A stretch of DNA of 64,000 bases from Thermotogota bacterium (GTDB lineage Bacteria; Thermotogota; Thermotogae; Mesoaciditogales; Mesoaciditogaceae): positions 15,337-79,336 of the forward strand of contig JALSLY010000069.1 of the NCBI GenBank assembly GCA_026988035.1, given 5' to 3'. Positions 11,193 through 53,530 of the stretch are shown here, in pieces. Under the pieces are notes generated by a model. That model saw nothing but the letters and a program-made list of their open reading frames with translations, did no database searches and had not been told where the DNA came from. The position numbers were made by a program, and so were the translations under genes. Every line of letters starts with the position of its first letter. The stretch's first letter is position 1.

Positions 11193-12600
11193 ATTTGCCA
11201 AGATCACTTCGAGAGTCATCGCAGAATTTGAGAAAATTCTCGGAAATAATGGTGTGATATTTAACGACAAGGACACTCTTGAAAACTATGCACATGACGA
11301 AACTGGTGGAGAATACTATTCGCACATGCCGGATGTTGTTTTGAAACCCGAAAATACGGAACAGATCTCCAAGATTCTAAAAATTGCGAATGCAGAATGC
11401 ATACCAATAACACCACGTGGAGCTGGAAGCGGACTTGCAGGAGCCTCTGTTCCCATCTTTGGCGGAGTTGTCATCTCATTCGAAAAAATGAACAAAATTC
11501 TCGAAGTTGACAAAACAAACCTTGTAGCAGTCGCTGAACCTGGGGTTGTGACAAACGATCTCTGCCGAAAAGTGTCTGAACTTGGACTTTATTACGCTGG
11601 ATATCCGATGAGTGTGGAAACGAGCTTTATAGGAGGAAATGTTGCGACAAATGCGGGAGGGAGCAAAGTTATAAAGTATGGCAACACGGCTCATCATGTG
11701 CTTGGAATGGAAGCTGTCCTTCCCGATGGAGAGATCGTGCAATTTGGTGGAAAGCGTAGAAAAGATTCGAGCGGGTATGATATCACGCGTTTGATGGTTG
11801 GTTCCGAAGGGACCCTTGCGGTCTTCACGAAAATCTTTCTTAACCTCATACCACTTCCCGGTAAGACCGTGGATTTGCTTGCGCCTTTTGGGGATATTTA
11901 TACAGCCATTTCAAACGTTGGTCCGTTAATTGCAGAAAGCAAAACACTCCCAAGTGCGGTAGAGTTTATAGATAACACCTCTGTGATTCTTGGCTCAAAG
12001 TACAACAACATAACCCTTCCCTTTCAAGAAAAGGCAGGCGCGTATCTTATTATCCAATACGAAGGACGCGACAAGGCGGAACTTGAGAGTATATACGAAA
12101 AAGCCGGCAAAGCTTTGATAGATGGAAAGGCTATGGATGTTTTCGTGGCAGATAACAGAACCAATTCAGAAAAGATATGGAGAATACGAAGAAATTGGCT
12201 TGAGGGGATAAAAGCATTTGAGCCCCACACGCCTACAGGAGATGTTGTTGTTCCAACGTCTGAAATACCACAAATTATGGAATGCATCTCTGAAATATCG
12301 AAAGAGTATAAGGTTCAAATCCCAGTTGCTGGCCATGCCGCTGATGGTAACCTTCATCCTGCTCCCATGAAACCAAAAAGTATGGAACTGGAAGATTGGA
12401 AGAACCTTTCGGAAGAGATTTTATCCAAAATAGCCATAAAAGCCGCACAAATGGGAGGCGCGGTGAGTGGAGAGCATGGAATAGGATTCGTAAAAAAAGA
12501 GCTTCTTAAGAAGACTAAAAGCAAACAATATGAGATCATGAAATCTTTGAAAGATGCCATAGATCCCAATGGAATCATGAATCCTGGGAAATTGTTTTGA
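11185..12600 (+). CDS. FAD-binding oxidoreductase of the GlcD / D-lactate dehydrogenase family (LctD-like)
   Basis: About 471 aa. It has the FAD_binding_4-type motifs PRGAGSGLAGASVP, VEPGVVTNDL, YPMS....IGGNVATNAGG and GTLAVFTKI, and the C-terminal GGAVSGEHGIG..K and DPNGIMNPGK. GAGGTG sits 7 nt before the ATG at 11185; the ATG at 11179 is an alternative. Confidence 0.8.
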   Translation: MAEFAKITSRVIAEFEKILGNNGVIFNDKDTLENYAHDETGGEYYSHMPDVVLKPENTEQISKILKIANAECIPITPRGAGSGLAGASVPIFGGVVISFEKMNKILEVDKTNLVAVAEPGVVTNDLCRKVSELGLYYAGYPMSVETSFIGGNVATNAGGSKVIKYGNTAHHVLGMEAVLPDGEIVQFGGKRRKDSSGYDITRLMVGSEGTLAVFTKIFLNLIPLPGKTVDLLAPFGDIYTAISNVGPLIAESKTLPSAVEFIDNTSVILGSKYNNITLPFQEKAGAYLIIQYEGRDKAELESIYEKAGKALIDGKAMDVFVADNRTNSEKIWRIRRNWLEGIKAFEPHTPTGDVVVPTSEIPQIMECISEISKEYKVQIPVAGHAADGNLHPAPMKPKSMELEDWKNLSEEILSKIAIKAAQMGGAVSGEHGIGFVKKELLKKTKSKQYEIMKSLKDAIDPNGIMNPGKLF

Positions 12601-12760
12601 AAGTTGGCTCAACTTTTATACCAAAACGCTTTCAAGATTCCAAGGATAATACTAAAATGTGTTTGTTGAACATTAGCAAAAGCGCTAAACTAATTTGTAA
12701 AAGAAACAGCTAACGATACTAATTGAATGAATTTATGATATTTGAGAAAGGGTGAATGTC

Positions 12761-13741
12761 ATGTTTGATTTTATGAATGAAAAGTTGAGTCTCGGCCGTT
12801 TCCCAACTCCCATTGAACCCATGAAATATGGTGAAAAATATGGAGTGAATTTGTTTGTAAAGCGTGATGACCTTGATGAATTTATAGGCTCTGGAAACAA
12901 AGTAAGAAAGTTAGAATATCTTTTGTACGATGCCAAGAAACTTTCTTGCGATGTTGTTTTAAGTGCTGGAGGCGTGCAGTCAAATCATTGTAGAGCCACG
13001 GCGTACTTTTCAAAAAAATTGGGTATGGATGTTGAGCTCTTTCTCTTTGGTGAAAGCGAATTGCAAGGCAACTTCTTGATAGACAAGCTTCTTGGGGCGA
13101 AAATCCACTCCATTACTTATGAAGAATACGAAAACGTTGCCGAGATTATGAACAAAAGAGCAACGGAATTAGAATCGACAGGACGCAGAGCTTACGTTAT
13201 TCCTCCTGGTGGATCTAGTGCGGTGGGATTTCTCGGATATGCAGCAGCTGTACACGAAATTTCAAATTGGGAAAAAGCGCATGGCAAATTTGATTATATT
13301 GTGTGTGCTACAGGAACGGCTGGAACGATCGCAGGGCTTGAAATAGGAAGGCTACTTTATAATGAGGAATTCAAAGTAATTGGTGTGAACGTTACAAAAA
13401 GATCACAGGAAGATTTTCATAAAATCATGTCAGAAGAATTGGTTGCCTTCAACGCGAAATACAAAACGGAGATAAAAGAACTAAATCCGATAGTGGTAGA
13501 TGGTTATGTGGGTGAGGGATACGCAATCCCCTCGCAAGAAGACTTTGAAATCATACGAGATGTAGCATCAAAAGATCAGTTGATATTCGATCCAGTATAC
13601 ACGGCAAAAGCCTTTAAAGGTATTATATCAATGATCAAGAAGAGCGAAATACCTCAAAACTCCCGAATACTTTTTATCCACACTGGTGGGACATTTGGAC
13701 TTTTCGCATTTGCAAATCAGTTGGAAAATTTCCTAATATGA
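12761..13741 (+). CDS. PLP-dependent D-cysteine desulfhydrase / ACC-deaminase family protein
   Basis: FPTPIEPM, KRDDL...GSGNKVRKLEYLL (PLP lysine motif), SAGGVQSNHCRATA and IHTGG. I prefer the ATG at 12761 (AAAGGGTGA RBS); the GTG at 12752 is an alternative. Confidence 0.8.
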   Translation: MFDFMNEKLSLGRFPTPIEPMKYGEKYGVNLFVKRDDLDEFIGSGNKVRKLEYLLYDAKKLSCDVVLSAGGVQSNHCRATAYFSKKLGMDVELFLFGESELQGNFLIDKLLGAKIHSITYEEYENVAEIMNKRATELESTGRRAYVIPPGGSSAVGFLGYAAAVHEISNWEKAHGKFDYIVCATGTAGTIAGLEIGRLLYNEEFKVIGVNVTKRSQEDFHKIMSEELVAFNAKYKTEIKELNPIVVDGYVGEGYAIPSQEDFEIIRDVASKDQLIFDPVYTAKAFKGIISMIKKSEIPQNSRILFIHTGGTFGLFAFANQLENFLI

Positions 13742-13852
13742 TCATGATAATTGTGGTTTTGTGTACTTAATTCTAAAATATCGTGTTTTTTACAAAGGCT
13801 CAGTTCCACTTTTCTTCATTTTGAAAAGTTCCACTCATTATGAATGACTCAG

Positions 13853-14515
13853 ATTGTGCAACGAACATTACAAGGCGCGAAGGCGCTGGCGGTAGCCGAG
13901 TGGGATTGTGCGGTGAGTGGAGTTGCCTGTGGCAACATCTTTTCCACTTCCCCGACCAAAGCGGCAGCTGCGACCAATGTTTTCCCACTTTCATGTCTGA
14001 GGCGGTAGCCGAGTGAGGGACCATCGAAGATAGTGGGTGGTGTGATTTGTTAAAGATTACACACCCCGGCCTTCGGCCACCCCTCTTGATAGAGGGGATT
14101 AAAAGCAAAAGTAGTCCTTCCTTGAGGAGCAGGATTGCACAGTGAGTGGAGTTGCCTGTGGCAACATCTTTTCCACTTCCGCAACCAAAGCGGTAGTTGC
14201 GACCAATGTTCTCCTGCTTTCATGTCCGAGGCGGTAGCCAAGTGGGATTGTGCGGTGCACAATGTTTTCCCACTTCCATGTCCGAGGCGGTAGCCGAATG
14301 GGGGACCGCGTAGCGGTGGAAGGTAGTCCTTCCTTGAGGAAGGTGGCGGCGAAGCCGACGGAAGGTGTTAGTATGCAGCGTGCCTCACGATGTGAACTGG
14401 AAGATGGATAAGCGAGTGAATCGGGCTTGATAAGACTTCGAAAAAAAATCCTTTATCGCTTGAAAAGCGATGTTTATTTGATAAATACTCATAGGTTGTA
14501 AAGTTGACGCACAAC
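13853..14515 (+). repeat. dispersed non-coding MITE-like element, copy A (longest; a diverged right arm may extend to about 14550)
   Basis: The left end AGATTGTGCAACGAACATTACAAGG and right end GATAAATACTCATAGGTTGTAAAGTTGACGCACAAC are shared with the loci at 31880-32010 and 50933-51369. The interior is G+C-rich with duplicated ~120-nt modules. Confidence 0.7.
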
Positions 14516-14596
14516 TTAAATAAATGAGTTTTCAGAGAACGTGAGTGCGCCTAATGTGTGATAATAAAAGGAAATTGCTGTACGGGAGGAGTATTG

Positions 14597-15226
14597 GTGC
14601 CAAGAATAGAACCTTTTGAAAATCATTTTTTGGAATATGAAAATTGGTTTGAAAAAAACAAATTTGTCTATAAATCGGAACTTTCAGCAGTAAGGTTTTT
14701 GCTACCCAAAAGTGAGGAAGGATTGGAAATCGGTGTTGGAAGCGGCCGGTTTGCTGCCCCTCTTGGGATCAAATTGGGAGTAGAACCATCTCAAAAAATG
14801 GCCAGAATAGCAATTAAAAACGGAATTAAAGTGATTAAAGGAGTGGCAGAAGAACTTCCCTTTTATGATGAACAGTTTGATTTTGCTTTGATGGTAACAA
14901 CGATCTGTTTTGTAGACGATGTTCGGAAAGCGTTCGAAGAAGCTTATAGAATATTGAAGCAACATGGTGTGATCATAGTTGGATTTGTTGACAAAGAAAG
15001 TATAGTTGGAAGAGAATACGAAGCTCATAAATCAGAGAGCATTTTCTACAAAACCGCCACATTTTACTCGACAAACAGAGTCGTTTCTATTTTAAAGGAA
15101 GTTGGATTTAAAAACTTTCACTTTGTTCAAACCGTTTTTCATTCTCTAAATGAAGTGAAAGATGTTGAAGAAATCAGGAATGGGTATGGGAAAGGTTCAT
15201 TTGTGGTGATAAGAGCAAAAAAATGA
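14597..15226 (+). CDS. class I SAM-dependent methyltransferase
   Basis: Motif I-like LEIGVGSGRFA and a post-I/II region (FDFALMVTTICFVDD, LKQHGVIIVG). The start is placed at the GTG at 14597, 5 nt after GGGAGGAG; the TTG at 14594 and the track start at 14558 are alternatives. Confidence 0.7.
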   Translation: MPRIEPFENHFLEYENWFEKNKFVYKSELSAVRFLLPKSEEGLEIGVGSGRFAAPLGIKLGVEPSQKMARIAIKNGIKVIKGVAEELPFYDEQFDFALMVTTICFVDDVRKAFEEAYRILKQHGVIIVGFVDKESIVGREYEAHKSESIFYKTATFYSTNRVVSILKEVGFKNFHFVQTVFHSLNEVKDVEEIRNGYGKGSFVVIRAKK

Positions 15227-16215: not shown

Positions 16216-17757
16216 ATGAGGAAAGTCGTTTTGTTGGCAATCGCCATCTTTGCTTTGTGGACTTTGGCTATGGCAGGAGCAAACTATAACAGTAGCATAG
16301 TTGTTGGTACGGATCAGAATCCAACCACTTTGGATCCCGCGATGTATCAGGATCTCGCTTCTGCACAAGTAATGCGAAATGTCTATGAAACTTTGGTCAC
16401 TTACAATGCGAGTGTAACGAAGATAGAACCCTTGCTCGCCGTCTCGTGGAAAGTTTCCAAAGATCTTAAAACCTGGACGTTTCAACTACGAAAAGGTGTA
16501 CATTTTCAAAAGGGGAGATTCCAAGATGGCAGAGAAATGACAGCTGCAGATGTTAAATACAGCTTTGACAGGGAAATTCAGAAATCGCCTATGGTACGCT
16601 TATACATGGTGAAGAGCGTTGATGTTCTTGGTAAGTATGAAGTAAGAATCACCCTTAAATATCCCTATGCACCGTTCTTGACAGTACTCACAGATATAGG
16701 GGCAGCTATAGTACCCAAAGAAGAGGCGGAAGGATGGGGAAAGGCATTTGCTCAACATCCATGTGGTACAGGACCGTTCATCATGAAAGAATGGATAAAA
16801 GATGATCACATGACATTCATAAGAAATGACAATTATTGGGGGAAAAAGCCATATCTAAAACATATAACTTACAAATTCATTCCGGATAAATCTGTTCTTT
16901 CCATCGCCTTGATGACAGGAGAAGTGGATATAACCAGCGATATCTTGGATCAGGATATTCCAAAGGTTAAATCAACTCCAGGGGTTCACGTGGTAATGAG
17001 ACCAGGTGTTAATGTCTATGCGGCTTATATGAACTCCATGAGAGGACCTACAACCAACAAAAAAGTCAGAGAAGCTATATTTTATGGCGTTAACTGGGAT
17101 CAGCTGGTGAAGGCTATATTTCCAAATGGTTCTGGCATAAGAGCATATGGACCAATACCCCCAGGTTCATGGGCTTACAACCCTGATATCAAAAAATTGG
17201 CTTTACCTTACGATCCTCAAAAAGCTCGGCAACTGTTGAAAGAAGCTGGATATCCTAATGGTTTAACATTGCACATTTACACTCCAGGAGATCCAAACAG
17301 AAAGAAAGCAGCTGTGATAATGCAAGCTATGCTAAAAAAGGTAGGCATAAATCTCAAAATCACAAGTCTTGAATGGGGAAGTTTTGTAGATGTAACTTCA
17401 AAGGGAAATGCGGATATTTATACTATTGGATGGACATGGTATCCAGATCCGGAATATTTTATATTCTATATGTTCGATTCCTCAAGAGTTGGTACGTATG
17501 GAAATGGCGGAGGGTACAAAAATCCAATGGTTGATAAGTACATACGTCTTGGTGAATCCACTGTGGATCGTTCAAAGAGGATCATGTATTACGACAAAGC
17601 CGAAGAACTTATAATGGAAGACAGGGTCTATGCACCGCTGTACCACAAGATGGTTGTAATGGGAGTAAATGATAAGGTACACGGATTTACGGTTTCTCCA
17701 GATATGATGATTCGACTCTACGCTCCTGGTACCAATGTTTGGGTAAGTTCTAAATAA
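16216..17757 (+). CDS. ABC transporter substrate-binding protein, family 5 (peptide/nickel, DppA/OppA-like)
   Basis: 513 aa with an N-terminal signal/anchor (VVLLAIAIFALWTLAMA). Typical SBP_bac_5 blocks are present (LDPA, YETLV, GTGPF....W, NDNYWG, GW..YPDP). An AGGGGGTG RBS is present. Confidence 0.9.
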   Translation: MRKVVLLAIAIFALWTLAMAGANYNSSIVVGTDQNPTTLDPAMYQDLASAQVMRNVYETLVTYNASVTKIEPLLAVSWKVSKDLKTWTFQLRKGVHFQKGRFQDGREMTAADVKYSFDREIQKSPMVRLYMVKSVDVLGKYEVRITLKYPYAPFLTVLTDIGAAIVPKEEAEGWGKAFAQHPCGTGPFIMKEWIKDDHMTFIRNDNYWGKKPYLKHITYKFIPDKSVLSIALMTGEVDITSDILDQDIPKVKSTPGVHVVMRPGVNVYAAYMNSMRGPTTNKKVREAIFYGVNWDQLVKAIFPNGSGIRAYGPIPPGSWAYNPDIKKLALPYDPQKARQLLKEAGYPNGLTLHIYTPGDPNRKKAAVIMQAMLKKVGINLKITSLEWGSFVDVTSKGNADIYTIGWTWYPDPEYFIFYMFDSSRVGTYGNGGGYKNPMVDKYIRLGESTVDRSKRIMYYDKAEELIMEDRVYAPLYHKMVVMGVNDKVHGFTVSPDMMIRLYAPGTNVWVSSK

Positions 17758-17766
17758 TTTTTTATG

Positions 17767-17798
17767 AGCTGCCAGGTGTTTTTTAAGGCCTGGCAGCT
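17767..17798 (+). terminator. stem-loop after the binding-protein gene (terminator/attenuator or mRNA stabiliser)
   Basis: AGCTGCCAGG (17767-17776) pairs perfectly with CCTGGCAGCT (17789-17798). The loop is 12 nt and is followed by TTTCAAATATT. Confidence 0.5.
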
Positions 17799-17830
17799 TT
17801 CAAATATTGTACAATCTGGAGGCGTAGCAT

Positions 17831-18787
17831 GTGAGGAAGTACATTATACATAGGTTACTTCAGATGATTCCAACTATTTTTCTTGTTATGTTTATAGCTT
17901 TTGCATTGATGAAACTGATCCCCGGAGATCCCGCAGCCGTTATGCTTGGTCCTCAGGCGCGGGCGCAAGACATAATGAAATTGGATAAAGAGTTAGGCCT
18001 TGATCAACCAGTAATGATGCAATTTTTGATATACGTTAAACGAGCTTTTTCTGGGGATTTTGGAAGATCCATAATATATGGAGAACCGGTTTTTACGTTA
18101 CTCTTGCAAAGATTCCCACTCACAGCTCTTTTAAGCGTTATGGCACTTTCAATCGCTATCATTGTTGCTGTACCATCAGGAATATTGGCGGCTCTAAAGC
18201 AAAACAGCTTTGTGGATTACCTTATAACAGTTTTTTCTCTAGTAGGAGTTTCCACTCCTATTTTTTGGTTTGGATTGATGCTGATGATGGTGTTTTCCCT
18301 GTATCTCCACATTCTTCCATCAGTGGGGATGGGAAATGGTACATTGCTTGACACATTCCGTCACTTAATATTGCCATCAATATCTTTGGCCTTACTATCC
18401 ATGGGAACAATAGCTCGTGTGACGAGATCTAGCATGCTGGAAGTACTTAGACAAGATTATGTAAAAACCGCTTACGCAAAAGGGCTTAAGAAGAAAACGA
18501 TTATTTATCGCCACATGTTGAAAAATGCTATGGTGCCAATCATAACCGTTTCCGGTTTGCAATTGGGTAATTTGCTTGCTGGTGCCGTTCTCACCGAAAC
18601 GATTTTTGGTCTTCCTGGTATGGGACGACTCATGTACGATGCGATCTTAAGGAGAGACTTTTTAGTAGTGCAAGGTGGGATATTGTTTGTTGCCTTTATT
18701 TACATAGCGCTGAATTTTTCGGTTGATCTGTTGTACGCCGCCTTCAATCCACATATTACCAGTTCTTATAAAGGAGTGGCAAAATGA
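17831..18787 (+). CDS. ABC transporter permease (DppB/OppB-like)
   Basis: GTG start 7 nt after GGAGG. The N-terminus YIIHRLLQMIPTIF and the EAA-type loop YVKTAYAKGL.....I.RH.L.NA are present, with 6 predicted TM segments. Confidence 0.9.
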   Translation: MRKYIIHRLLQMIPTIFLVMFIAFALMKLIPGDPAAVMLGPQARAQDIMKLDKELGLDQPVMMQFLIYVKRAFSGDFGRSIIYGEPVFTLLLQRFPLTALLSVMALSIAIIVAVPSGILAALKQNSFVDYLITVFSLVGVSTPIFWFGLMLMMVFSLYLHILPSVGMGNGTLLDTFRHLILPSISLALLSMGTIARVTRSSMLEVLRQDYVKTAYAKGLKKKTIIYRHMLKNAMVPIITVSGLQLGNLLAGAVLTETIFGLPGMGRLMYDAILRRDFLVVQGGILFVAFIYIALNFSVDLLYAAFNPHITSSYKGVAK

Positions 18788-19641
18788 CCACAAATGTACG
18801 AACAATCAAATGGGAATTCGCTGCAAAATTTATCCGTAGTAAATCTGCAGTTACAGGATTAATTGTCGTTGTAGTACTTGTTTTTATGGCCATAATGGCT
18901 CCTTATATTTCTCCTTTTCCGAGTGATTCAATGGATTTTTCTTCCATGATGAGTCCTCCAGGAGTCAATGGCCATTTAATGGGAACTGATCAATACGGTA
19001 GAGATATTCTTACAAGAATACTATATGGATCCCGGATATCATTAATGGTGGGAATTGTAGCAGTGGGAATAGGTGCTGGTTTTGGAATACTTCTTGGAGT
19101 AATTGCAGGCTACTTTGGAGGTATTTTAGATGCTTTAATCATGAGAGTTGTAGATGCTATGTTATCATTTCCATATATTTTGCTTGCCATTGCGATGATG
19201 GCTATGTTAGGTCCAGGATTGTTTAATGCTATGCTTGCGATAGGAATTGTTATGACCCCAAATTTTGCTCGAATTGTAAGAGGAAATGTATTGTCTGTAA
19301 AAGAAGAGGAATTTATTGTGGCTTCCAAGATCCTCGGTGCTTCGAATTCGAGAATTATAGCAAGTCATATTCTTCCTAACATTCTTCACATAATAATAGT
19401 TTACGGTTCGTTAAATTTTGCCGGAGCAATAATAAGTGAAGCCACTTTAAGCTTCCTTGGTATAGGCATTCAGCCCCCTACACCTTCGTGGGGAAGCATG
19501 TTAAGAGATGCGCAGTCTTATCTTCAAGTAGATCCGTATATGTCCATTTTCCCAGGCACTGCTATTTTGATTTCTTCACTTGGTTTTAATTTACTTGGGG
19601 ATGGTCTTCGAGACATATTGGATCCAAGATTGAATATTTGA
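18784..19641 (+). CDS. ABC transporter permease (DppC/OppC-like)
   Basis: HLMGTDQYGRDILTRILYGSR and the EAA loop EEEFIVASKILGASNSRIIASHILPN are present. The start overlaps the upstream stop (ATGA). Confidence 0.9.
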   Translation: MTTNVRTIKWEFAAKFIRSKSAVTGLIVVVVLVFMAIMAPYISPFPSDSMDFSSMMSPPGVNGHLMGTDQYGRDILTRILYGSRISLMVGIVAVGIGAGFGILLGVIAGYFGGILDALIMRVVDAMLSFPYILLAIAMMAMLGPGLFNAMLAIGIVMTPNFARIVRGNVLSVKEEEFIVASKILGASNSRIIASHILPNILHIIIVYGSLNFAGAIISEATLSFLGIGIQPPTPSWGSMLRDAQSYLQVDPYMSIFPGTAILISSLGFNLLGDGLRDILDPRLNI

Positions 19642-19654
19642 GAGGATGATGAGA

Positions 19655-20821
19655 ATGACTTATAAACAAGCCTTACAAAAAAGCATCGATGATCTCTCTG
19701 TAGAACTTGTAAATATTGCGAAGAAGATATTTAGATACAAAGAAATTGCCTACAAAGAATACAGATCAGCCAAAGAACTGAGCGATTTTTTGGAGAGAAA
19801 AGGATTTCAGGTTTCAAAAAACGTGGCTGGTCTTGAAACTGCTTTCGTGGCCAAATACGGATCTACCCCTCCACACGTAGCGTTGCTGGCAGAATATGAT
19901 GCTCTACCAGGTCTTGGCCATGCATGCGGTCACAACCTTATAGGTACGATAAGTGTCGGAGCAGCTGTGGCATTGAAGGAAAGTGGAATACTCGAACATC
20001 GGGGCACGATATCAGTTGTGGGAAGTCCTGCAGAAGAAGCTGGCGGTGGAAAAGTTGCATTGTTAAGACATGGAGTATTTGATGATGTCGATGTTGCGAT
20101 GATGATCCATCCGGCTTCGATGACGACAGGTTTTGATATAGCATACGCTATAGACGAGTTCAAAGTTGAATACTTTGGGAAAGCAAGCCATGCAGCTTCT
20201 GCTCCTGAAAAAGGAGTTAATGCCCTTGATGCCATGATAAATGCCTTTGTGGGAATAGGATTGCTAAGGCAACAGTTACCGGAAAATGTACGTATACACG
20301 GAATAATAACAAATGGTGGACAAGCCTCCAACATAATTCCTGAGTATACCAAAGCAGAGATAGGTGTAAGAGCATTGGAACGTAAGGAATTAGACAAAGT
20401 TGTTGAGAAATTTAAAGCAGTTTTAAAGGGAGCCGCGAAATCAACAGGATGTCGACTCAAAATCACCAAGCAAACATCATTGGATAACGTAAAGGTAAAC
20501 GCTCCACTCGCACAAGCTCTTGAGTCAAATTTCAGATCAGTTGGGGAGACGGTGGTAAAGAGAACCTATGAGCAAGGTGTTGGCTCCACTGATATGGGGA
20601 ATGTGACTCAAAAGGTACCAGGGATACATGCTTATATAAATATCACGAATAGTGAAAATATACCAGCACATACGCGCAAATTTGCTATGGCGTGCAATTC
20701 GGATTATGCTTATTCGGCAATGTTGAGAGCTGCAAAAGCATTGGGAATGACCTGCTTAGATGTCATAGAAGATGGAGACCTTCTTATGAAAATAAAAACA
20801 TATTTCAAAGGGGAAAATTAG
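19655..20821 (+). CDS. M20 family metallo-amidohydrolase/peptidase (AbgB-like)
   Basis: LAEYDALPGLGHACGHNLIG, GSPAEEAGGGK and HPA motifs are typical of the M20 amidohydrolase clade. ATGs at 19646 and 19649 are alternative starts. Confidence 0.8.
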   Translation: MTYKQALQKSIDDLSVELVNIAKKIFRYKEIAYKEYRSAKELSDFLERKGFQVSKNVAGLETAFVAKYGSTPPHVALLAEYDALPGLGHACGHNLIGTISVGAAVALKESGILEHRGTISVVGSPAEEAGGGKVALLRHGVFDDVDVAMMIHPASMTTGFDIAYAIDEFKVEYFGKASHAASAPEKGVNALDAMINAFVGIGLLRQQLPENVRIHGIITNGGQASNIIPEYTKAEIGVRALERKELDKVVEKFKAVLKGAAKSTGCRLKITKQTSLDNVKVNAPLAQALESNFRSVGETVVKRTYEQGVGSTDMGNVTQKVPGIHAYINITNSENIPAHTRKFAMACNSDYAYSAMLRAAKALGMTCLDVIEDGDLLMKIKTYFKGEN

Positions 20822-31742: not shown

Positions 31743-31879
31743 CTCACTGGTTCATCGGTGTTTCCATTTTGTTTGGCTACTTTGAGAGCTTCTATGTAAC
31801 ACCTTCCACCGCTACGCGGTCTTCCTCTCAACTGTCGCTTGCTCCTATGGTAAAAGCATTTTTGACTCAGTATTACTCT

Positions 31880-32010
31880 ACTCAGATTGTGCACGAACAT
31901 TACAAGGCGATTGAAAACTATAAAAAAAGAGGTTTTTCACATCTATCGCTTGAAAAGCGATGTTTACTTGATAAATACTCATAGGTTGTAAAGTTGACGC
32001 ACAACGTGAG
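31880..32010 (+). repeat. dispersed non-coding MITE-like element, copy B (minimal, about 131 nt)
   Basis: It begins ACTCAGATTGTGCACGAACATTACAAGG and ends TTGTAAAGTTGACGCACAACGTGAG. The two ends are imperfect inverted repeats. TTACTCT occurs directly on both flanks (31873-31879 and 32011-32017). Confidence 0.7.
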
Positions 32011-32133
32011 TTACTCTATTCTTTTTGAATATGATGATGCATACGACTTTTTGTAGTAAAATGATATAAGGATATGAATGGTTGTGAATGGATAGCTGTA
32101 AATTCAATTTTCTCATTGTTAGGAGGCTAAAAA

Positions 32134-42159: not shown

Positions 42160-43119
42160 TTGAAAAAAATAGCAGTTATGACAAGCGGAGGCGACGCTCC
42201 GGGAATGAACGCTGCCATAAGGGCTGTTGTCAGATATGCAGTGTCTAAAGGTGTAGAAGTGTATGGAATAATGAGAGGATACACCGGGCTTATCGAAAAT
42301 GATTTCGTACAGTTAAAATTTTCAGATGTTGGCGGAATTATGGAGCGTGGTGGGACTATTCTGAGAACTGCGAGGTGCGAAGAATTCAAGGTTGATCGTG
42401 GAAGGAAAGATGCCTATAAAATTTTGAAAGAACATCAAATAGACGGGCTTGTAGTCATAGGTGGAGATGGGAGTTTAACAGGTGCCACTTTGATTGCCAA
42501 TGAAAGTGATGTTAAGGTAGTTGGTGTTCCCGCAAGCATCGATAATGACATTCATGGCACTGACATGTGTATAGGTGTTGATACTTGCTTAAATACTGTG
42601 GTTGAAAACATACAAAAACTCAAAGATACCGCTTCTTCACATGAAAGAGCATTTATTGTGGAGACGATGGGGAGAAATTGTGGCTACATTGCACTTGTTT
42701 CAGGCATAACCACCGGAGCAGAAGCAATCGTAATACCCGAGGTAAAGGTAGATTTTCAGGCTTTGGCTGATAAGTTATTAGCTGGCAAAAAGAGAGGGAA
42801 GATAAACAGCATAGTTGTTGTTGCAGAAGGTGCTGCAAGTGCTTATACGGTTGCAAGGCATCTTGAAAATCGTACTGGTTATGAAACTCGTGTCACCATT
42901 CTTGGGCACATTCAACGTGGAGGATCCCCAAGTGCTTTTGATAGACTTTTGGCATGTCGATTGGGCTCCAGCGCAACTGAGGCTCTCCTTAACGGTCAAA
43001 ACGGCGTCATGATGGGTCTCCAATCTGATGGAATCGTATCTGTTGATCTAAGTGAAGCTCTTCAGACAAAAAAAGAACTCGATCTTGAATTGTACAAACT
43101 TGCCAACATACTTTCATGA
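42160..43119 (+). CDS. pfkA: ATP-dependent 6-phosphofructokinase
   Basis: [48 protein letters not shown] and LGH.QRGG are present; the protein is 319 aa. TTG start after AAGGGGTGAAG. Confidence 0.95.
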
Positions 43120-50600: not shown

Positions 50601-50884
50601 CTTTCAGGATGACATCATCTCAAGATATAGATGATAATTTGATTTTTCTTTCTGGGCTTGCCAATGGCGTGATTGGATATGAAATAAACGGAGGCTCTGT
50701 TGGTGATTCATGGTCTGACATCGTGGTTTACTTTAACGCTAATACAACAGCAAAAACTGTAACCTTACCAACTGGGACATGGAATATAGCTGTGAATGGA
50801 GCGATGGCGTCAACGAGCTCAATTGGCACAGCTTCAGGAACGATTCAAATTGTCCCATTGAGTGCCTACGTGTTCTATAAGTGA
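44606..50884 (+). CDS. giant cell-surface lipoprotein pullulanase (GH13 type I pullulanase catalytic core with FN3 and carbohydrate-binding-like modules)
   Basis: There is a signal peptide with the lipobox LSGC (Cys23). About five FN3-like modules follow, then three ~200-aa repeated modules (YVVGDFTNW / YVAGNFDGW). A CBM48-like segment (LGAIYSPYQTTFKVWSP) follows. The GH13 regions are YNWGYVPYLYM, GIGVILDISFSHT, GFRFDQM, YGEPW and YSTCHDN. Confidence 0.85.
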   Translation: MKSNRFLFFLAVLIAMAMILSGCFLFPKIGVLVKPTLISPPNKATGISTNVVLLWKEKGSFKNLNYRLFFGTSNPPAYQKTVDTTQTIENNLKYSTTYFWRVAAVNKSGKVATSDIWHFTTMALPTPSTPILSVTSVSTDSVSLQWTKSANAASITLYSVTSNQFSQVVTLSGTTTSYTLTNLEPATVYKFFVVASNTSGKATSNTVTATTQSIPAPPKPPLPSTPVLKVTSISTDSVSLGWSKSTNASAIDVYSATSNKFSQIASLSPNATSYMANNLKPSTTYKFFVVATNPSGKATSNTVTATTQSLPPSTPILSVGSVSTNTITLKWTQSKNSNLITIYQATSVNFSSIATLTGIATSYKVNDLKAFTTYKFFVVASNETGRATSNTVVATTLKIVIKPNPPKIFVNSPNTYSTLLTWSESSTNVVGFHIWRRSNSNEAYTLIASVSENKNSYTDIVNPGHTYSYMVSAYNSAGQSFSKSVSIFVGQNYFPMKTTSSLVTVNAQPSVQPQSTKVLGSNSYSLLNFIKTFKAAASSVQLIPTNEVITYQKLTSNGTTTYTVNISYAFAGQPNVELHLSFLVGDEKVYLQNFASYPILLLNSIYGNKPLSKTHVLSNSYSRNVTYISQMTFGNHTYNNVLKVTLTGPTMTLVFYLAPNEGLMRVDVLIDSSTAFSYTVTSTSTTIPPVYPQTPVIVSPAANSTVPSTFTLKFSGDSSTYTIYLNSQTLISTSSTIVEIGPLSDGTYTLSIKAANSYDLETLSQAVNFTVQGGWTATPTYVVGDFTNWATNSNYEMSYDPVNKTYSLTTSVPAPASTLTYGINRYLIEQVYKGEIVKYGYQPIPITSENVTFYFNQSMAKPFTSDGIGDTSKENRSWYFASDINGWTFSQMQASGTTFVATVATNGAFEPGTYGFKITPQAAFSTTPASLISYYFNGSYGAYYLPNGSFSIATPSNEIVVKFNILNSKITFEATNVTSVYLRSSFSSWSANMPDYKFKYDPFTGIYSLTTEVPSTTGQQEYKVVYNGAWYGGNNIPVKSGTVTFYFDPSIATDPSKAVGIGDTSKESMTWYYAGDLGETWSKPQQMQYIGNGTFVATETGNFSVGNYYFKITPNVSWASSPYYYNGSIWGNFSSSSNAGSLHLSTAASKVVVEFNVLKSLVTLHPVISPTYYVAGNFDGWQNVVGNSNYKMSPNSSGIYTLSMTLPSTTGQYQYKIVEWTGTQTVWYGGPGSNANYGNIPVKSGNVTFYFDPSIASGSPSGGNSDVGIGDTTKETMKWYFAGDINNWRFATMTYVGNGTFAATITRPATDDSAGAYGFKITPQSTWSTQPASLTQYYFNGGYGGYSSPNNGTVVVPQATTVVVDFNVLNSSVSAKAAKIQTLHQVIMAYLDSMDEIHATLNSTVNTSNLSQFKFSVNGHNTPISSVVDANTGLSGISNYITINLSTPLNLSDVASSMVLTINNFSPATVYARYALNNSAFHYDGQLGAIYSPYQTTFKVWSPVSDQVDLLLFKNANDTTPYATYAMTRNSQGVWSTSVMGDLNGVYYEYSYHRYGEWISAPDIYSKAANADNTKSMVIDLSQTDPSGWNVDTAPFPNNMVDAIIYELHVQDFTDNPNSGVSPQYQGTYMGFTQTGTTYDGMPTGVDHLAQLGVNYVQLLPIEDYEDPQNPGYNWGYVPYLYMVPESKYSTTPNDPANTINEVKQMIESLHSKGIGVILDISFSHTSYVTTPYTAAVPYYYYNYNEYGQKTNYSGVGNDLATGNYMVEKLIVDTLKYWMTQYHISGFRFDQMYLYDPQTIQDIVQTLRALDPGVLLYGEPWKASGYKFTYYDQRGMDLGVFNGYFRDAMIGTADNPTAMGFVNGNATSTSVQSDIKSGIVGSVPFETLPNTFAAEPDESINYSTCHDNYTLWDKITMAQPTWSASEDIAAQKLAGAIVMLSQGVAFMQGGAEFARTKDGNGNSYNVQSPNEFDWSRLTQFATVDSYYQGLIAIRKAHPAFRMTSSQDIDDNLIFLSGLANGVIGYEINGGSVGDSWSDIVVYFNANTTAKTVTLPTGTWNIAVNGAMASTSSIGTASGTIQIVPLSAYVFYK
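44984..45793 (+). repeat. three tandem paralogous FN3-module repeats inside the pullulanase gene
   Basis: The protein repeats STP(I/V)L.V.S(V/I)ST(D/N).(V/I)(S/T)L.W..S.N......Y.ATS..FS..A.L......Y....L...T.YKFFVVA.N..G.ATSNTV.ATT occur three times (about aa 127-212, 224-309 and 313-396). Confidence 0.8.
46921..48735 (+). repeat. three tandem ~600-nt modules (each a pair of carbohydrate-binding-like beta-domains) inside the pullulanase gene
   Basis: Three protein patterns recur three times: Y(V/L)..(D/S)F..W...(S/P)(N/D)Y.(M/F).YD/P....YSLT...PS; VTFYF(N/D)(Q/P)S.A...S..(V/I)GIGDT(S/T)KE...WY(F/Y)A(S/G)D; and Y.FKITP(Q/N)..(F/W)(S/A)(T/S).P. Confidence 0.6.
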
Positions 50885-50888
50885 ATTA

Positions 50889-50922
50889 AGTGCCCTTCAT
50901 TTGAGGGGCACTTGTTGTTTTT
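50889..50922 (+). terminator. rho-independent terminator of the pullulanase gene
   Basis: AGTGCCC (50889-50895) pairs with GGGCACT (50906-50912). The following tract TGTTGTTTTT begins 5 nt after the stop codon region. Confidence 0.7.
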
Positions 50923-50932
50923 ACTCGCTCAA

Positions 50933-51369
50933 ATTGTGCACAAACATTACAAAACGATCCAAACTATAAAGAAAGAGATTTTTCACATTCCCTCGAAGTT
51001 TTCATCAAGACATATGAGCTCGCCATCTGAAAGCTCACAAGATGTAATGTCTTTCCCACTTCCATGACCGTTCTACTGTATTTTGTAAGGAGAGGAAATG
51101 CCAGAGCGGGATTGCGTAGTACGCAATATCTTTCCCGCTTTTCTGACCGAAACGAAGTTGAGAGCATCATCACTTCCTCTTTGTGTCTGAGGTGGCAACC
51201 GAGTAGTAGGCACAAGTGGTAGCCAAGAAGGGGACCGCGTAGCGGTGGAAGGTGTTAGATATGCAGCGTGCTTTACACAGAATCTTTGACCATAACGTCA
51301 TTCCGGACTACAGTTGGTTCTGGATGTTTATTCGATAAATACTCATGGGTTATAAAGTTGACGCACGAC
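50933..51369 (+). repeat. dispersed non-coding MITE-like element, copy C (about 437 nt, more diverged)
   Basis: The left end is ATTGTGCACAAACATTACAAAACGATCCAAACTATAAAGAAAGAGATTTTTCACAT (collinear with copy B). The interior shares GGGGACCGCGTAGCGGTGGAAGGTGTTAGATATGCAGCGTGC with copy A. The right end is GATAAATACTCATGGGTTATAAAGTTGACGCACGAC. Confidence 0.65.
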
Positions 51370-51388
51370 GTGGGATGAAAGATAGGAA

Positions 51389-52081
51389 TTAACGTGTTAG
51401 TTTGTTGTAAAGTAGTTGAAAGGCGTGAACAGCCACTCTTTCTATTTCAGCAACCGTTAGCTTCAACGGCTCGATCATCATTAAAGGCATAATGATGATT
51501 AGATTAAAAAGTGCTTGTATTGAAAAACCGTAAACAACAAAAACCGCAAGCGAATTCAACGCTATGATCACTGCAAAAAATTCAAATCCTGCACTGTTAG
51601 AACGCGGGCGAAAGTCGAAAACCTTTAAAGTCAGATAGGCAATTTTTGAAAATACTGCGATAACAAAGGCACAAAACAGGAAAACCAAGAGCACCCACCA
51701 ATCACGAAACAGCGGTGGTATTTCAAATCCCACAATCCATCCAAGTTTGTAAAGAATCAAAACCAGCGACCAAAAGAGTGGCCCTTCAGCTAAAAAGATC
51801 GACAATCCATTTATCTTCATCATGATCGAGATCGACATTGGAACGATAAAGAGAATGAAAAACAGTGATCCACCTAAATCATTAAATGCAAAGATTATCA
51901 CGGAAGCCACCACAACGATTCTTAACCATTCAGAACGTGATTGATTCATGGCATACACAAGTGGAAACACAGCTAAGTAACTTATGGCCGTTCCAATCCC
52001 GTAGATCATTTGAAATGTATAGATAAGAGCAGTTAAAGCCCCCAAAATGGCACTTTCAGCATTTTGCCGTGCTTTAGTCAT
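51389..52081 (-). CDS. hypothetical integral membrane protein (about 6 TM segments)
   Basis: 230-aa ORF, strongly hydrophobic throughout. I recognise no catalytic motif. Confidence 0.65.
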   Translation of the reverse strand: MTKARQNAESAILGALTALIYTFQMIYGIGTAISYLAVFPLVYAMNQSRSEWLRIVVVASVIIFAFNDLGGSLFFILFIVPMSISIMMKINGLSIFLAEGPLFWSLVLILYKLGWIVGFEIPPLFRDWWVLLVFLFCAFVIAVFSKIAYLTLKVFDFRPRSNSAGFEFFAVIIALNSLAVFVVYGFSIQALFNLIIIMPLMMIEPLKLTVAEIERVAVHAFQLLYNKLTR

Positions 52082-52524: not shown

Positions 52525-52576
52525 GAAAGCTTTTTAGCCAATGACTCCTACCCATCCCACGGATAGGAGGTTTTTT

Positions 52577-53530
52577 ATGCTGTTAATTTTTCTAAGCATT
52601 TTGCAGTTGTTCTATGTGCTACTGCTTTCACCGTTAATCTTCGGAATCTTTTCAAAATTCGAAGAGAGAATCGAATCTAAAAAAGGACCAAGTATTTTTC
52701 AACCTTACTACGATCTTTTCAAACTTTTTAGAAAACAAGTCGTCGTCCCTGAGGTGTCGTCTCCGTTTTTTCATGTGGTGCCTTACGTAGAATTTGCATT
52801 GTACTCGCTTTTGACGTTAGTCCTACCAATAATAACGGCCTTTCCACTTGAATTTGGGCCAACGGTGGATTTCATCGGTGGAGGTTTGATCTTTGGAGCA
52901 GCAGCGCTGTTGAAGAAAATAGCATCTTTGGACAGTCGAAGCAATTATTCGCATCTTGGAGTTTCTCGAGCAGCAAGCATGGGAGCATTGGCAGAACCAA
53001 TAACGGTTTTAATATTCATTATGTTAGGCGTTATCTCAAAGACAAATAACCCTTACATCATAAACAACGTACTTCAAACATCATCAAGTTGGTATCTTTC
53101 GTTGACACACTGGTTTGTTGCCGCTGCATTTTTCATGATCTTGCTTGTTGAAACCGGAAAACTTCCAATAGAACATCATTCCACAGCTGAGCTTGGTATG
53201 ATTGATCAGGCAATGGATCTGGAGTACTCAGGAATGGACCTCGCCTTCTACAAATGGGGAGGATATATAAAGAAATTTTTGCTCATGAGTGTGTTTGTGA
53301 ACGTGTATACGGTGCCGTTTTTCGTACCTATGAAGTATAATCTGTCTTCGATTGCCATATATACAGGAATTCACTTTTTAAAGCTTCTCGGTCTTGTGAT
53401 TAGTATGGGGCTATTAGAGGAAAGTATTTCAAAATTCAGACTCTTCAAAAATTTCGATTACATGGCTATCTCCTTCTCTTTGGCCTTTCTGAGTTTCTTG
53501 GCGTTTTACACAACGAATGGAGGTTTCTAA
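52577..53530 (+). CDS. NuoH / HycD / HyfC-like membrane subunit
   Basis: A polytopic membrane protein of about 317 aa. The ATG at 52577 lies 7 nt after GGAGG. The charged loop motifs (PIEHHSTAELGMIDQAMDLEYSG) are typical of the NuoH/HycD quinone-chamber subunit family. Confidence 0.75.
   Translation: MLLIFLSILQLFYVLLLSPLIFGIFSKFEERIESKKGPSIFQPYYDLFKLFRKQVVVPEVSSPFFHVVPYVEFALYSLLTLVLPIITAFPLEFGPTVDFIGGGLIFGAAALLKKIASLDSRSNYSHLGVSRAASMGALAEPITVLIFIMLGVISKTNNPYIINNVLQTSSSWYLSLTHWFVAAAFFMILLVETGKLPIEHHSTAELGMIDQAMDLEYSGMDLAFYKWGGYIKKFLLMSVFVNVYTVPFFVPMKYNLSSIAIYTGIHFLKLLGLVISMGLLEESISKFRLFKNFDYMAISFSLAFLSFLAFYTTNGGF

Follow-up and report, generated by a model that had tools for sequence, protein, structure and literature searches.

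What kind of feature is the G+C-rich island that stands out in a 64-kb stretch of Thermotogota DNA (the window)? The core of the island, at 13876-14376, has a G+C content of 55.5%, compared with 40% for the 64-kb window (mean 39.9%, standard deviation 4.8%, measured in 120-nt windows), and it is the longest run above 54% G+C in the window. The original prediction took it for a candidate structured RNA gene, on the premise that such islands mark RNA genes in AT-rich thermophile genomes. Phylogenetically, the host belongs with the Mesoaciditoga-like Thermotogota. These are moderate thermophiles, while a proxy based on proteome composition places growth at about 33 °C, so the premise is only loosely valid. 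A discrete structured RNA gene was not supported by our analysis: the island makes up the variable interior of a repeat element that is present in several copies and has inverted repeats and target duplications, there is no single global architecture across the copies, and one copy has no modules at all. We consider it likely that the island is the hairpin apex of a miniature transposon that was enlarged by duplication and nesting.

The G+C-rich, self-complementary island itself is real, and it is hairpin-dense and noncoding as had been proposed. Recounting the segment at 14281-14340 gave exactly the predicted 38 G+C of 60, and the arm at 14461-14520 was G+C-poor as claimed, with 18 rather than 19 G+C of 60. 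The module of about 120 nt was indeed doubled (13898-14015 and 14127-14244, 118 nt each, 88% identical), and the repeated unit of about 45 nt proved to be a 48-nt unit present three times, at 13975, 14204, and 14260; the degenerate units announced for a distant copy of the element, copy C, were found at 51046-51070 and 51094-51151. The sequence GGCGGTAGCCGAGTGGG occurs four times, against an expectation of 0.02, and a hairpin unit of about 56 nt is recurrent in the core. All of the individual hairpins named in advance are present, two of them displaced by one base: GTTGCC-TGT-GGCAAC (13922-13936 and 14151-14165), GGCC-TTC-GGCC (14068-14078), CCCCTCT-TGAT-AGAGGGG (14080-14097), and CCTTCC-TTGA-GGAAGG (14328-14343). 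The tetranucleotide GTAG is found eight times on the plus strand of the core and never on the minus strand (2.9 and 1.5 expected), each time 1 to 4 nt upstream of a stem and in three different sequence contexts. Separately, a sub-unit repeat links 14108-14128 and 14320-14340 (95% identical).

The island is the interior of an element of 681 bp on the plus strand, copy A (13848-14528), and the window holds three copies and a remnant of this element, with the right arm present three times in the 64 kb. The elements range from 130 to 681 bp, have terminal inverted repeats of 26 to 28 nt, and end in CTCAGATTGTGCA...GCACAACKTGAG. Copy B (31881-32010, plus strand), a minimal element of 130 bp, lacks the G+C-rich core; its ends pair over 26 nt with 77% complementarity, and a perfect target-site duplication of 8 bp, TTACTCTA, stands on either side (31873-31880 and 32011-32018). 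Adjoining it on the minus strand is an inverted solo remnant of the 3' end of the core that includes a 20-mer motif (31793-31847). Copy C (50928-51374, plus strand, 447 bp) has the 5' arm of the basal stem (50989-51029); it also contains a single complete unit (51094-51151) besides fragments of units, and its 20-mer motif lies at 51233-51252. Hairpin units number 0, about 2, or about 5 per copy, and the number and order of the modules differ in every copy, with none in copy B. The units are confined to the elements, as determined with a unit covariance model over 141 kb of searched sequence. The three copies have the same orientation and are codirectional with the flanking genes. A Logan assembly of short reads from the same organism is interrupted within the right arm of copy A.

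Outside the window, the same ends occur in a copy at a metagenome locus (L060), and related ends are present in elements of Mesoaciditoga lauensis. Perfect direct repeats abut both ends of the L060 copy (TTTAAAA, 7 bp) and of M. lauensis element E1 (TAGTAA, 6 bp). Target-site duplications thus accompany three of the five complete copies, with lengths that vary (6, 7, and 8 bp), and none was seen at copies A and C; the sample of the window subfamily comprises five or six copies. Close relatives were found via PFK, and in those with 82 to 94% identical PFK the element is absent upstream of the epimerase gene while the gene order is conserved, so that the orthologous sites are empty of the element. 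Terminal inverted repeats, abutting target-site duplications, small size, noncoding sequence, multiple copies, and insertion polymorphism are the features of a MITE. Neither the window nor any of the additional loci examined yielded an autonomous partner or transposase, and the transposition mechanism is therefore only inferred. In the closest relative, the site that corresponds to copy C has a possible diverged remnant of borderline quality, which scored 34, where shuffled sequences had a mean of 22.8, a standard deviation of 3.3, and a maximum of 35.

Within copy A, all of the parts lie on the plus strand. The left terminal inverted repeat (CTCAGATTGTGCAACGAACATTACAAGG, 13848-13875) has an end that recurs at 31881, at 50928, and in L060. 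It is followed by the core (13876-14376), which the G+C content, the GTAG counts, and the internal repeats mark as a mosaic of GTAG-headed stem-loop units that are duplicated and nested. In module 1 (13888-14000), an outer bulged hairpin formed by AGTGGGATTG (13899-13908) and CAATGTTTTCCCACT (13975-13989) encloses a nested unit (hairpin 13916-13948) that scores 58 bits with the covariance model. Module X (14014-14131) contains the hairpins GGTGTG..CACACC, GGCC-TTC-GGCC, CCCCTCT-TGAT-AGAGGGG, and TCC-TTGA-GGA, and is 77% identical to the L060 copy over 135 aligned nt, with the hairpins surviving both substitutions and indels. Module 2 (14127-14229), with its nested unit at 14145-14177, repeats module 1 at 88% identity, and its outer stem, AGCAGGA/TCCTGCT, is compensated. 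Next comes a simple 56-nt unit (14230-14285) with the layout GGCGGTAGCC-A-AGTGGG-ATTGTGC-GGT-GCACAAT-GTTTT-CCCACT-TCCATGTCCGA and a covariance model score of 63 bits, and then the 3' motif GGGGGACCGCGTAGCGGTGGAAGG (14286-14324), which includes the 20-mer (14304-14323) and is common to copies B' and C and L060 as well as to Clostridia, Negativicutes, and Alphaproteobacteria. By sequence comparison, the last part of the core holds a 42-nt insertion (14325-14366) consisting of a GTAG-type hairpin, CCTTCC-TTGA-GGAAGG, and CGGC-GAA-GCCG; it has the direct repeat GGAAGGT on both sides and is missing from copy C and L060.

The right part of copy A begins with the 3' arm of the element's ancestral long basal stem (14377-14450). 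This arm aligns with M. lauensis L068 17684-17777 at 76.6% identity over 94 nt (E = 2e-13), where its counterpart pairs with a 5' arm, and both basal-stem arms are homologous to M. lauensis elements, with E = 2e-13 and 2e-4. Copy A has lost the 5' arm and copy C is without the 3' arm; the homologous elements have both. Inside the right arm, a hairpin of terminator type, ATCGCTT-GAAA-AGCGAT, precedes a T-rich run (14454-14482); it is kept in copy B, L060, L061, and M. lauensis and is degenerate in copy C. The element closes with the right terminal inverted repeat (TTGTAAAGTTGACGCACAAC..TGAG, with a 7-nt insertion, 14496-14528). The stretch from the upstream stop codon (13741) to copy A yielded no terminator-like site, and the left arm, upstream of the core, no convincing promoter. 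Transcripts probably include copy A as a structured 3' untranslated region.

The pairing of the stems is maintained through the substitutions between copies. In a hand-built alignment of seven units around the structure, all 13 stem pairs are Watson-Crick and 83 of 83 pair cells are standard with no G-U, while both sides have changed in 7 of the 13 pairs and no change is one-sided or breaks a pair; these covariation statistics come from few, nonindependent paralogous sequences, and they support single hairpins only. Whether the substitutions between the two 118-nt modules are compensatory had been raised beforehand, and in the outer stem they are, with AGTGGGA/TCCCACT replaced by AGCAGGA/TCCTGCT through two compensated pairs. 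When the island was folded, both strands beat dinucleotide shuffles (z = -2.6 for the plus strand and -4.2 for the minus strand), so the self-complementarity goes beyond chance and is not specific to one strand. Given this and the lack of G-U pairs, the folding shows no sign that one RNA strand in particular is under selection. The asymmetric bulge GTTTT/ATCTTT, which is conserved among the units, the one-strand bias of GTAG, and the shared orientation of the copies nonetheless hint at a strand-specific constraint that pure "junk" expansion leaves unexplained.

Searches for known relatives bear on whether the island could be the decayed remains of a known RNA or gene (an rRNA, a tRNA, an intron, or a protein-coding gene). 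By eye, GGCGGTAGCCGAGTGGGA has a superficial likeness to a class II tRNA in its acceptor and D-arm; however, ARAGORN found no tRNA, and Rfam 15, used at gathering and permissive thresholds, returned no family at the gathering score or at E <= 10 for 13700-14600 and 50850-51450, a check that had been proposed beforehand. The same Rfam searches of the window, the 18+5 cross-phylum loci, and the relatives gave nothing overlapping the core. The longest ORF, which is 102 aa long and runs through the core, had no homologue in a set of 5.8 billion proteins, which removes a protein-coding remnant from consideration, and BLASTN against plasmids and phages gave no match. We therefore give a decayed fragment virtually no weight, since these tests effectively refute it. 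Other origins were also rejected: two viral-contig scans gave no match; integron attC sites, CRISPR, group II introns, and hammerhead or twister ribozymes were dismissed for having no conserved core motifs by eye; and an omega-RNA of IS200/605 elements, likewise judged by eye, does not fit the inverted repeats and target duplications. Pfam scans of ten neighboring ORFs revealed no transposase and ordinary metabolic genes. In the literature, we found no paper with the 14-nt core sequences and none on MITEs in Thermotogae besides Di Nocera 2013.

The GTAG tags raise the alternative that the core is a REP/BIME-type cluster, in which GTAG-tagged palindromes would have been spread by a RAYT (REP-associated tyrosine transposase) into a pre-existing MITE. 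The eight one-strand motifs head G+C-rich stems just as the tag stands beside the palindrome in REPs (Di Nocera et al. 2013, PMC3733652), which likewise form subfamilies with complementary stem changes (PMC3733652). Furthermore, the clustered mosaic arrangement is BIME-like, the position downstream of genes points to a role as terminator or stabilizer, and in other phyla the 20-mer GTAG motif forms the 5' arm of longer hairpins. REPs, however, are dispersed as singletons or dimers, whereas the units described here lie in one host element and never outside element copies, so that dispersed extragenic units are lacking, and their length of 39 to 56 nt exceeds the 20-40 bp of classical REPs. Moreover, no RAYT was identified: tblastn with an IS200 TnpA query, a weak test, found no IS200/RAYT-like gene in the window or the loci. 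On this balance, we regard a REP/BIME cluster as quite improbable.

It is also unlikely that the core represents a functional RNA, structured and multicopy, that would be a lineage-specific extension of the TwoAYGGAY type and ride on the mobile element by chance. Such an RNA could act as a protein sponge or scaffold, with the units as putative protein-binding modules whose number would tune valency. TwoAYGGAY RNAs are reportedly multicopy with lineage-specific extensions and extra hairpins, adjoin tandem REP arrays and look mobile, and their loops have been proposed as sites where Csr/Rsm binds (bioRxiv 10.64898/2026.09.22.753630). The M. lauensis elements contain two full-length matches to this family, of 29.0 and 27.3 bits (E = 0.26 and 0.64), both under its gathering score of 43 bits, and the ACGGAU and AUGGAC loops both fall on the loops of the model. 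In M. lauensis E2 and E3, two sequential AYGGAY-loop hairpins stand on a common basal stem. The likeness to the orphan TwoAYGGAY motif (RF01731; Weinberg et al. 2010; Li et al. 2026 preprint) includes the apex of two AYGGAY hairpins in M. lauensis, the long basal stem, and a multicopy, clustered occurrence with varying copy number, lineage-specific extensions, and tandem REP-like arrays. The perfect covariation of the unit stems, the conserved one-sided bulge, the codirectional copies, and the terminator-like hairpin at the end would also suit an RNA function. In contrast, copies A, B, and C and L060 have no AYGGAY-loop hairpins, having lost or replaced them, and the only AYGGAY in these copies lies in the basal-stem arm of copy A. 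The window copies do not match TwoAYGGAY at E <= 10, copy B is coreless, and copies A and C each miss one basal-stem arm, so the family-defining fold cannot form there. The absence of G-U pairs, the good folding of both strands, and the left arm without a convincing promoter also speak against a functional RNA, and TwoAYGGAY has been reported neither in Thermotogota nor with boundaries of inverted repeats and target duplications. A bolder version, in which the island is a TwoAYGGAY-type RNA extension on a transposon that swapped its AYGGAY (CsrA-type) hairpins for GTAG units and gained a two-hairpin motif, we consider a long shot. If true, the island would be transcribed and would serve some other, widely distributed nucleic-acid-binding protein as a mobile, multivalent decoy or scaffold. 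Should the weak Rfam link hold, the element would offer a concrete route of spread for TwoAYGGAY RNAs, which have recently been noted to act in the manner of mobile elements.

We therefore return to a miniature transposon with an enlarged hairpin apex as the reading that probably accounts for the locus. The observed repeat ends, target duplication, varied module content, Watson-Crick compensation, and arm homology to M. lauensis are its foundation. From the outside in, the ancestral layout, visible in M. lauensis and a metagenome relative, would have consisted of terminal inverted repeats of about 27 nt, a long imperfect basal stem, and a small apical hairpin domain, with a hairpin plus T-run near the right end. 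The apex in the window is built of bulged stem-loop units of 39 to 56 nt, each GTAG-headed, and the motif GGGGG-ACCGC-GTA-GCGGT-GGAAGG. We propose that the units multiplied by tandem duplication and by nesting in the loop of another unit, to reach 0 to about 5 per copy, and that the short direct repeats GGCGGTAGCC and GGAAGGT let the core grow through slippage or recombination between them. Selection, or correction templated by the palindromes, may have kept the stems perfect. The element would be moved in trans by a transposase that is encoded elsewhere and recognizes the inverted repeats. Transcription of copy A would occur by read-through from the upstream plus-strand gene and stop at the element's own hairpin and T-run; the resulting highly structured 3' untranslated region could serve, REP/BIME-like, as a terminator or exonuclease barrier.

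Established MITEs are among the closest comparisons: like Correia/NEMIS, ERIC, RUP, and Nezha, the element is small and noncoding, has inverted repeats and a target-site duplication, occurs in many copies between genes, folds into a long hairpin, and has size variants produced by interior insertions. Unlike them, its interior is an expanding array of nested, G+C-rich, bulged hairpin units, and it has neither a known partner insertion sequence nor sequence similarity to described families. The pneumococcal BOX element (boxA-boxB(n)-boxC) is alike in its end modules with complementary termini, its zero to several internal units of about 45 to 56 nt, and its very stable RNA or DNA structure, but its sequence is unrelated, and only in the present element do the units nest in loops and a clear target-site duplication mark the ends. 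The striking G+C island is thus explained without a new RNA gene, and such islands in low-G+C genomes can be amplified hairpin interiors of mobile repeats. The copies with 0 to about 5 units form a natural series of apical hairpin domain remodeling.

One part of the core reaches beyond this lineage. The two-hairpin motif (CCUCC..GGAGG)-GG-(GACCGC-GUA-GCGGU)-GGAAGG is found base-for-base in Clostridia, Negativicutes, and Alphaproteobacteria. A wider homology to the clostridial, Selenomonas, and alphaproteobacterial elements was considered and rejected, as the similarity spans only about 26 to 39 nt around the 20-mer. The 26-nt two-hairpin motif, common to three phyla, may mark an undescribed protein-binding site. 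As a minor observation on the surroundings, the methyltransferase encoded downstream has best homologues that are at most 68% identical and mostly archaeal.

The G+C-rich island at 13876-14376 lies within an 855-bp intergenic gap, flanked by genes for a PLP-dependent enzyme (12752-13741, + strand) and a methyltransferase (14597-15226, + strand), the latter directly downstream of element copy A (13848-14528), whose core the island forms. Its G+C content was 55.5% versus a window average of 39.9% (sd 4.8%, 120-nt windows), and it is the longest stretch above 54% G+C in the window. The original prediction of a non-coding, G+C-rich, self-complementary island was confirmed as an observation. The predicted 38 G+C of 60 at 14281-14340 was exact; the element arm at 14461-14520 was indeed low in G+C, at 18 of 60 on recount rather than 19. 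An internal duplication of about 120 nt had also been described, and we found it as two 118-nt modules (13898-14015 and 14127-14244) that are 88% identical, together with the shorter recurring unit, 48 nt long and present three times in copy A; GGCGGTAGCCGAGTGGG occurs four times (0.02 expected). All of the hairpins named beforehand were present, two of them off by one base. Dinucleotide shuffles folded less well than either strand (z = -2.6 for the + strand and -4.2 for the - strand). Rfam 15 gave no match to the core at the gathering score, nor with the cutoff relaxed to E <= 10. A tRNA was rejected (ARAGORN found none), as were a protein-coding remnant (the longest ORF was without a homologue) and a plasmid, phage, or viral-contig origin (no similarity to any of the three).

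The sequences flanking the island were found again in the window at 31.9 kb and 51.3 kb. The element begins with CTCAGATTGTGCA(C)GAACATTACAAGG and ends with GGTTGTAAAGTTGACGCACAAC(G/T)TGAG, and the two ends are complementary at 77% over 26 nt. Copy B (31881-32010, 130 bp), which is without the G+C-rich core, has the perfect 8-bp direct repeat TTACTCTA on both sides, and a 526-bp copy in a metagenome relative (locus L060) has TTTAAAA on both flanks; no target duplication was seen at copy A or copy C (50928-51374). A solo fragment of the core 3' end lies inverted beside copy B (31793-31847), and the right arm is a break point in a short-read assembly of the same organism. Together, these features are those that define a MITE. 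Neither a transposase nor an IS200-like gene was found nearby by tblastn of the window and loci with an approximate IS200 TnpA query or by Pfam searches of ten neighbouring ORFs. The known kinds of which the element is a variant are MITEs, BOX/BIME-like mosaics, and possibly TwoAYGGAY.

BLAST dissection of copy A delimited module 1 (13888-14013), module X (14014-14131), module 2 (14132-14244), a simple unit (14230-14285), a 3' motif (14286-14324), and a 42-nt insertion (14325-14366) between GGAAGGT direct repeats. The L060 copy contains module X, one unit, and the 3' motif, plus other hairpins absent from copy A; copy C contains a 5' stem arm, one complete unit with unit fragments, and the 3' motif; and copy B has no module, unit, stem arm, or 3' motif. 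Across copies, the core is a mosaic rather than a single architecture. The unit, about 56 nt long, reads GGCGGTAGCC-R-AGYRGG-ATTGYGC-GGT-GCRCAAT-(GTTTT)-CCYRCT-TYCATGTCYGA and folds as a 13-bp stem with a 3-nt loop and a conserved bulge on the 3' side. Modules 1 and 2 each hold a diverged unit (AGTGGA-GTTGCC-TGT-GGCAAC-ATCTTT-TCCACT) nested in the apical loop of another unit. In a covariance model search of 141 kb (the window and related loci), unit matches were confined to elements. Two features of the core are strand-specific: the bulge occupies the 3' side in every case, and GTAG lies entirely on the + strand (eight versus 2.9 expected, with a stem 1-4 nt downstream of each; none versus 1.5 expected on the - strand).

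Two side observations concern the element copies. A short ORF beginning MQRA, at 14373-14411, at 51261-51338, and from 2841 downward on the - strand of L060, is preceded by the Shine-Dalgarno-like GGAAGGTG of the 3' motif; copy C and L060 differ in it by five bases in the first ~16 codons (two synonymous, three conservative), the copy A version is diverged after four codons, and the ORF is probably fortuitous. The copies at L060 and at a second metagenome locus, L061, carry extra hairpins (L060 2690-2810 and L061 5620-5760, - strand), TCCCGGA-TCAGG-TCCGGGA followed by (C/T)GAC, that the window lacks. The extra hairpins are similar to CGTC-tagged REPs reported for Kosmotoga and Mesotoga (PMC3733652), and their stem agrees with the stem consensus for hairpin 1 of TwoAYGGAY (ccCgga..uccGgg).

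The original prediction had asked whether substitutions between modules and copies are compensatory, and pairing proved to be preserved. In a hand alignment of seven units around the stem, few and paralogous sequences aligned to fit the structure, standard pairs filled 83 of 83 cells, with changes on both sides in 7 of 13 pairs, no one-sided changes and hence no G-U, and no broken pairs; shuffle and slide controls gave far lower counts. The 118-nt modules differ at 14 positions, four of which make up two compensated pairs (AGTGGGA/TCCCACT to AGCAGGA/TCCTGCT), and four others, unpaired in module 1, give a perfect 6-bp hairpin, CGCAAC/GTTGCG, in module 2 (paired by eye). Since changes were compensated and no pair was broken, the hairpin potential of the core appears to be actively kept. 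The strictly Watson-Crick, strand-symmetric pairing has the look of DNA palindromes under selection or templated correction, and, as judged from sequence, gives no evidence of selection on one RNA strand. The predicted structured-RNA gene was borne out in part: the hairpins are real and maintained, but a discrete RNA gene was not supported, the core being the mosaic interior of a MITE.

The inverted repeats and target duplications are consistent with a MITE mobilised in trans by a transposase, and the mosaic, nested structure suggests that the apical domain would have been enlarged by nesting and by duplication events between short repeats in direct orientation (GGCGGTAGCC and GGAAGGT). At copy A, no terminator-like site was found from the upstream stop codon to the element, and a hairpin followed by a T-run lies within the element at 14454-14482, so transcription probably runs through the core, yielding a structured 3' untranslated region that may act like a REP or BIME, as a terminator or 3'-exonuclease barrier. 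We hold this combined account to be likely, with moderate confidence. The main rival, in which the units serve as functional modules of a multicopy RNA akin to TwoAYGGAY, we consider unlikely; the two readings are not mutually exclusive.

The rival draws on a Mesoaciditoga lauensis contig (L068, JQJI01000022) that carries at least three clusters of related elements (12430-13000, 17576-17940, and 19270-19730, - strand), which are rod-shaped with inverted repeats and target duplications. The copy A 3' arm (14377-14469) aligned with 17684-17777 of this contig at 76.6% over 94 nt (E = 2e-13), and the copy C 5' arm (50990-51029) also matched it (E = 2e-4). The element at 17576-17940 is bounded by related inverted repeats and flanked by a TAGTAA duplication, and its predicted fold is a rod with a long basal stem, closed by the inverted repeats, and a two-hairpin apex. 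A permissive Rfam scan gave two full-length, sub-threshold TwoAYGGAY (RF01731) matches on the elements of this contig (29.0 and 27.3 bits, the gathering score being 43; E = 0.26 and 0.64), with ACGGAU and AUGGAC loops exactly on the two AYGGAY loops of the model. TwoAYGGAY RNAs are reported to be multicopy, up to ~200 per Pseudomonas genome, with lineage-specific extra hairpins and structural extensions, and to have repeats on their flanks as well as tandem arrays of REPs whose position is fixed; their loops are proposed Csr/Rsm binding sites (preprint, 24 September 2026, 10.64898/2026.09.22.753630). In the window copies, by contrast, AYGGAY hairpins are absent and G+C-rich units take the apex position. 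Because copy A has lost the 5' arm of the basal stem and copy C the 3' arm, the ancestral rod is predicted to be unable to form in either. The M. lauensis clusters may be the first TwoAYGGAY-like RNAs from Thermotogota and the first for which transposon boundaries are defined.

The 3' motif extends beyond these genomes. Its 20-mer GACCGCGTAGCGGTGGAAGG occurs at 14304-14323 in copy A, at 31802-31821 (- strand) in the remnant beside copy B, at 51233-51252 in copy C, and in the L060 copy, and the exact 20-mer was found in 58 loci of a species-representative genome set. Hosts include Clostridia metagenome-assembled genomes (gut, rumen), Selenomonas and other Negativicutes, and the alphaproteobacteria Brevundimonas, Sphingomonas, and Phenylobacterium; the 20-mer often lies at contig ends or within palindromic repeat elements, and four matches in coding-like, high-G+C contexts look like chance. 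Of 48 distinct contexts, 36 have a perfect CCTCC...GGAGG hairpin ending 2 nt upstream (spacer GG), and its apical stem variants are compensated (e.g., CCTCCCTC/GAGGGAGG, CCTTCCTC/GAGGAAGG, and CCTCCCCAT/ATGGGGAGG). GGAAGG forms a hairpin with a complement 30-170 nt downstream in most loci, and the L060 equivalent of this second hairpin, CCCCCTCG...CGAGGGGG, encloses ~230 nt of G+C-rich modules. Likeness of the cross-phylum loci to the window is limited to ~26-39 nt, and the motif matched no Rfam family and nothing in a literature search.

The PFK protein encoded at 42160-43119 has Mesoaciditoga lauensis, Mesoaciditoga sp., and Athalassotoga as its best named relatives (81-82% identity), with other relatives reaching 93-94%, and the gene order epimerase to MutS, PFK, and PK is kept among relatives; these relationships place the host in the Mesoaciditogales (Thermotogota). 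Members of this order are moderate thermophiles, but the IVYWREL fraction of 0.393 (39 ORFs, including one 2092-aa secreted protein) predicts a growth optimum of only ~33 °C, below expectation for a relative of Mesoaciditoga, so the thermophile premise of the original prediction is loose. In the closest relative (PFK 94% identical; loci L062 and L063), no element lies upstream of the epimerase gene, and 21 kb contained neither an arm nor a unit; in more distant relatives another gene directly precedes the epimerase gene, and Mesoaciditoga sp. retains a solo remnant of the left end. At L062 ~20040-20370, downstream of a pullulanase-like gene and at the same site as copy C, a stretch weakly resembles the inner portion of the element's left side (GAAAACAGTACAAACAAGTTGTTTTTACACAT), borderline at ~3.4 sd above shuffles. 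Unlike in the window, where the PK and pullulanase-like genes adjoin, L062/L063 hold between them (12640-13920) a 224-aa ORF without a Pfam match and a duplicated pyruvate-kinase C-terminal fragment. The closest homologues of the methyltransferase (14597-15226) are at most 68% identical and the named ones archaeal (Methanosarcinales, Syntrophoarchaeum, and Thermococcus), which suggests horizontal acquisition. A fluoride riboswitch (RF01734; 52499-52557, + strand), scoring 37 bits and above its gathering score, immediately precedes an operon whose first ORF (52541-53530) is not crcB or eriC but resembles an NADH-dehydrogenase subunit (PF00146).
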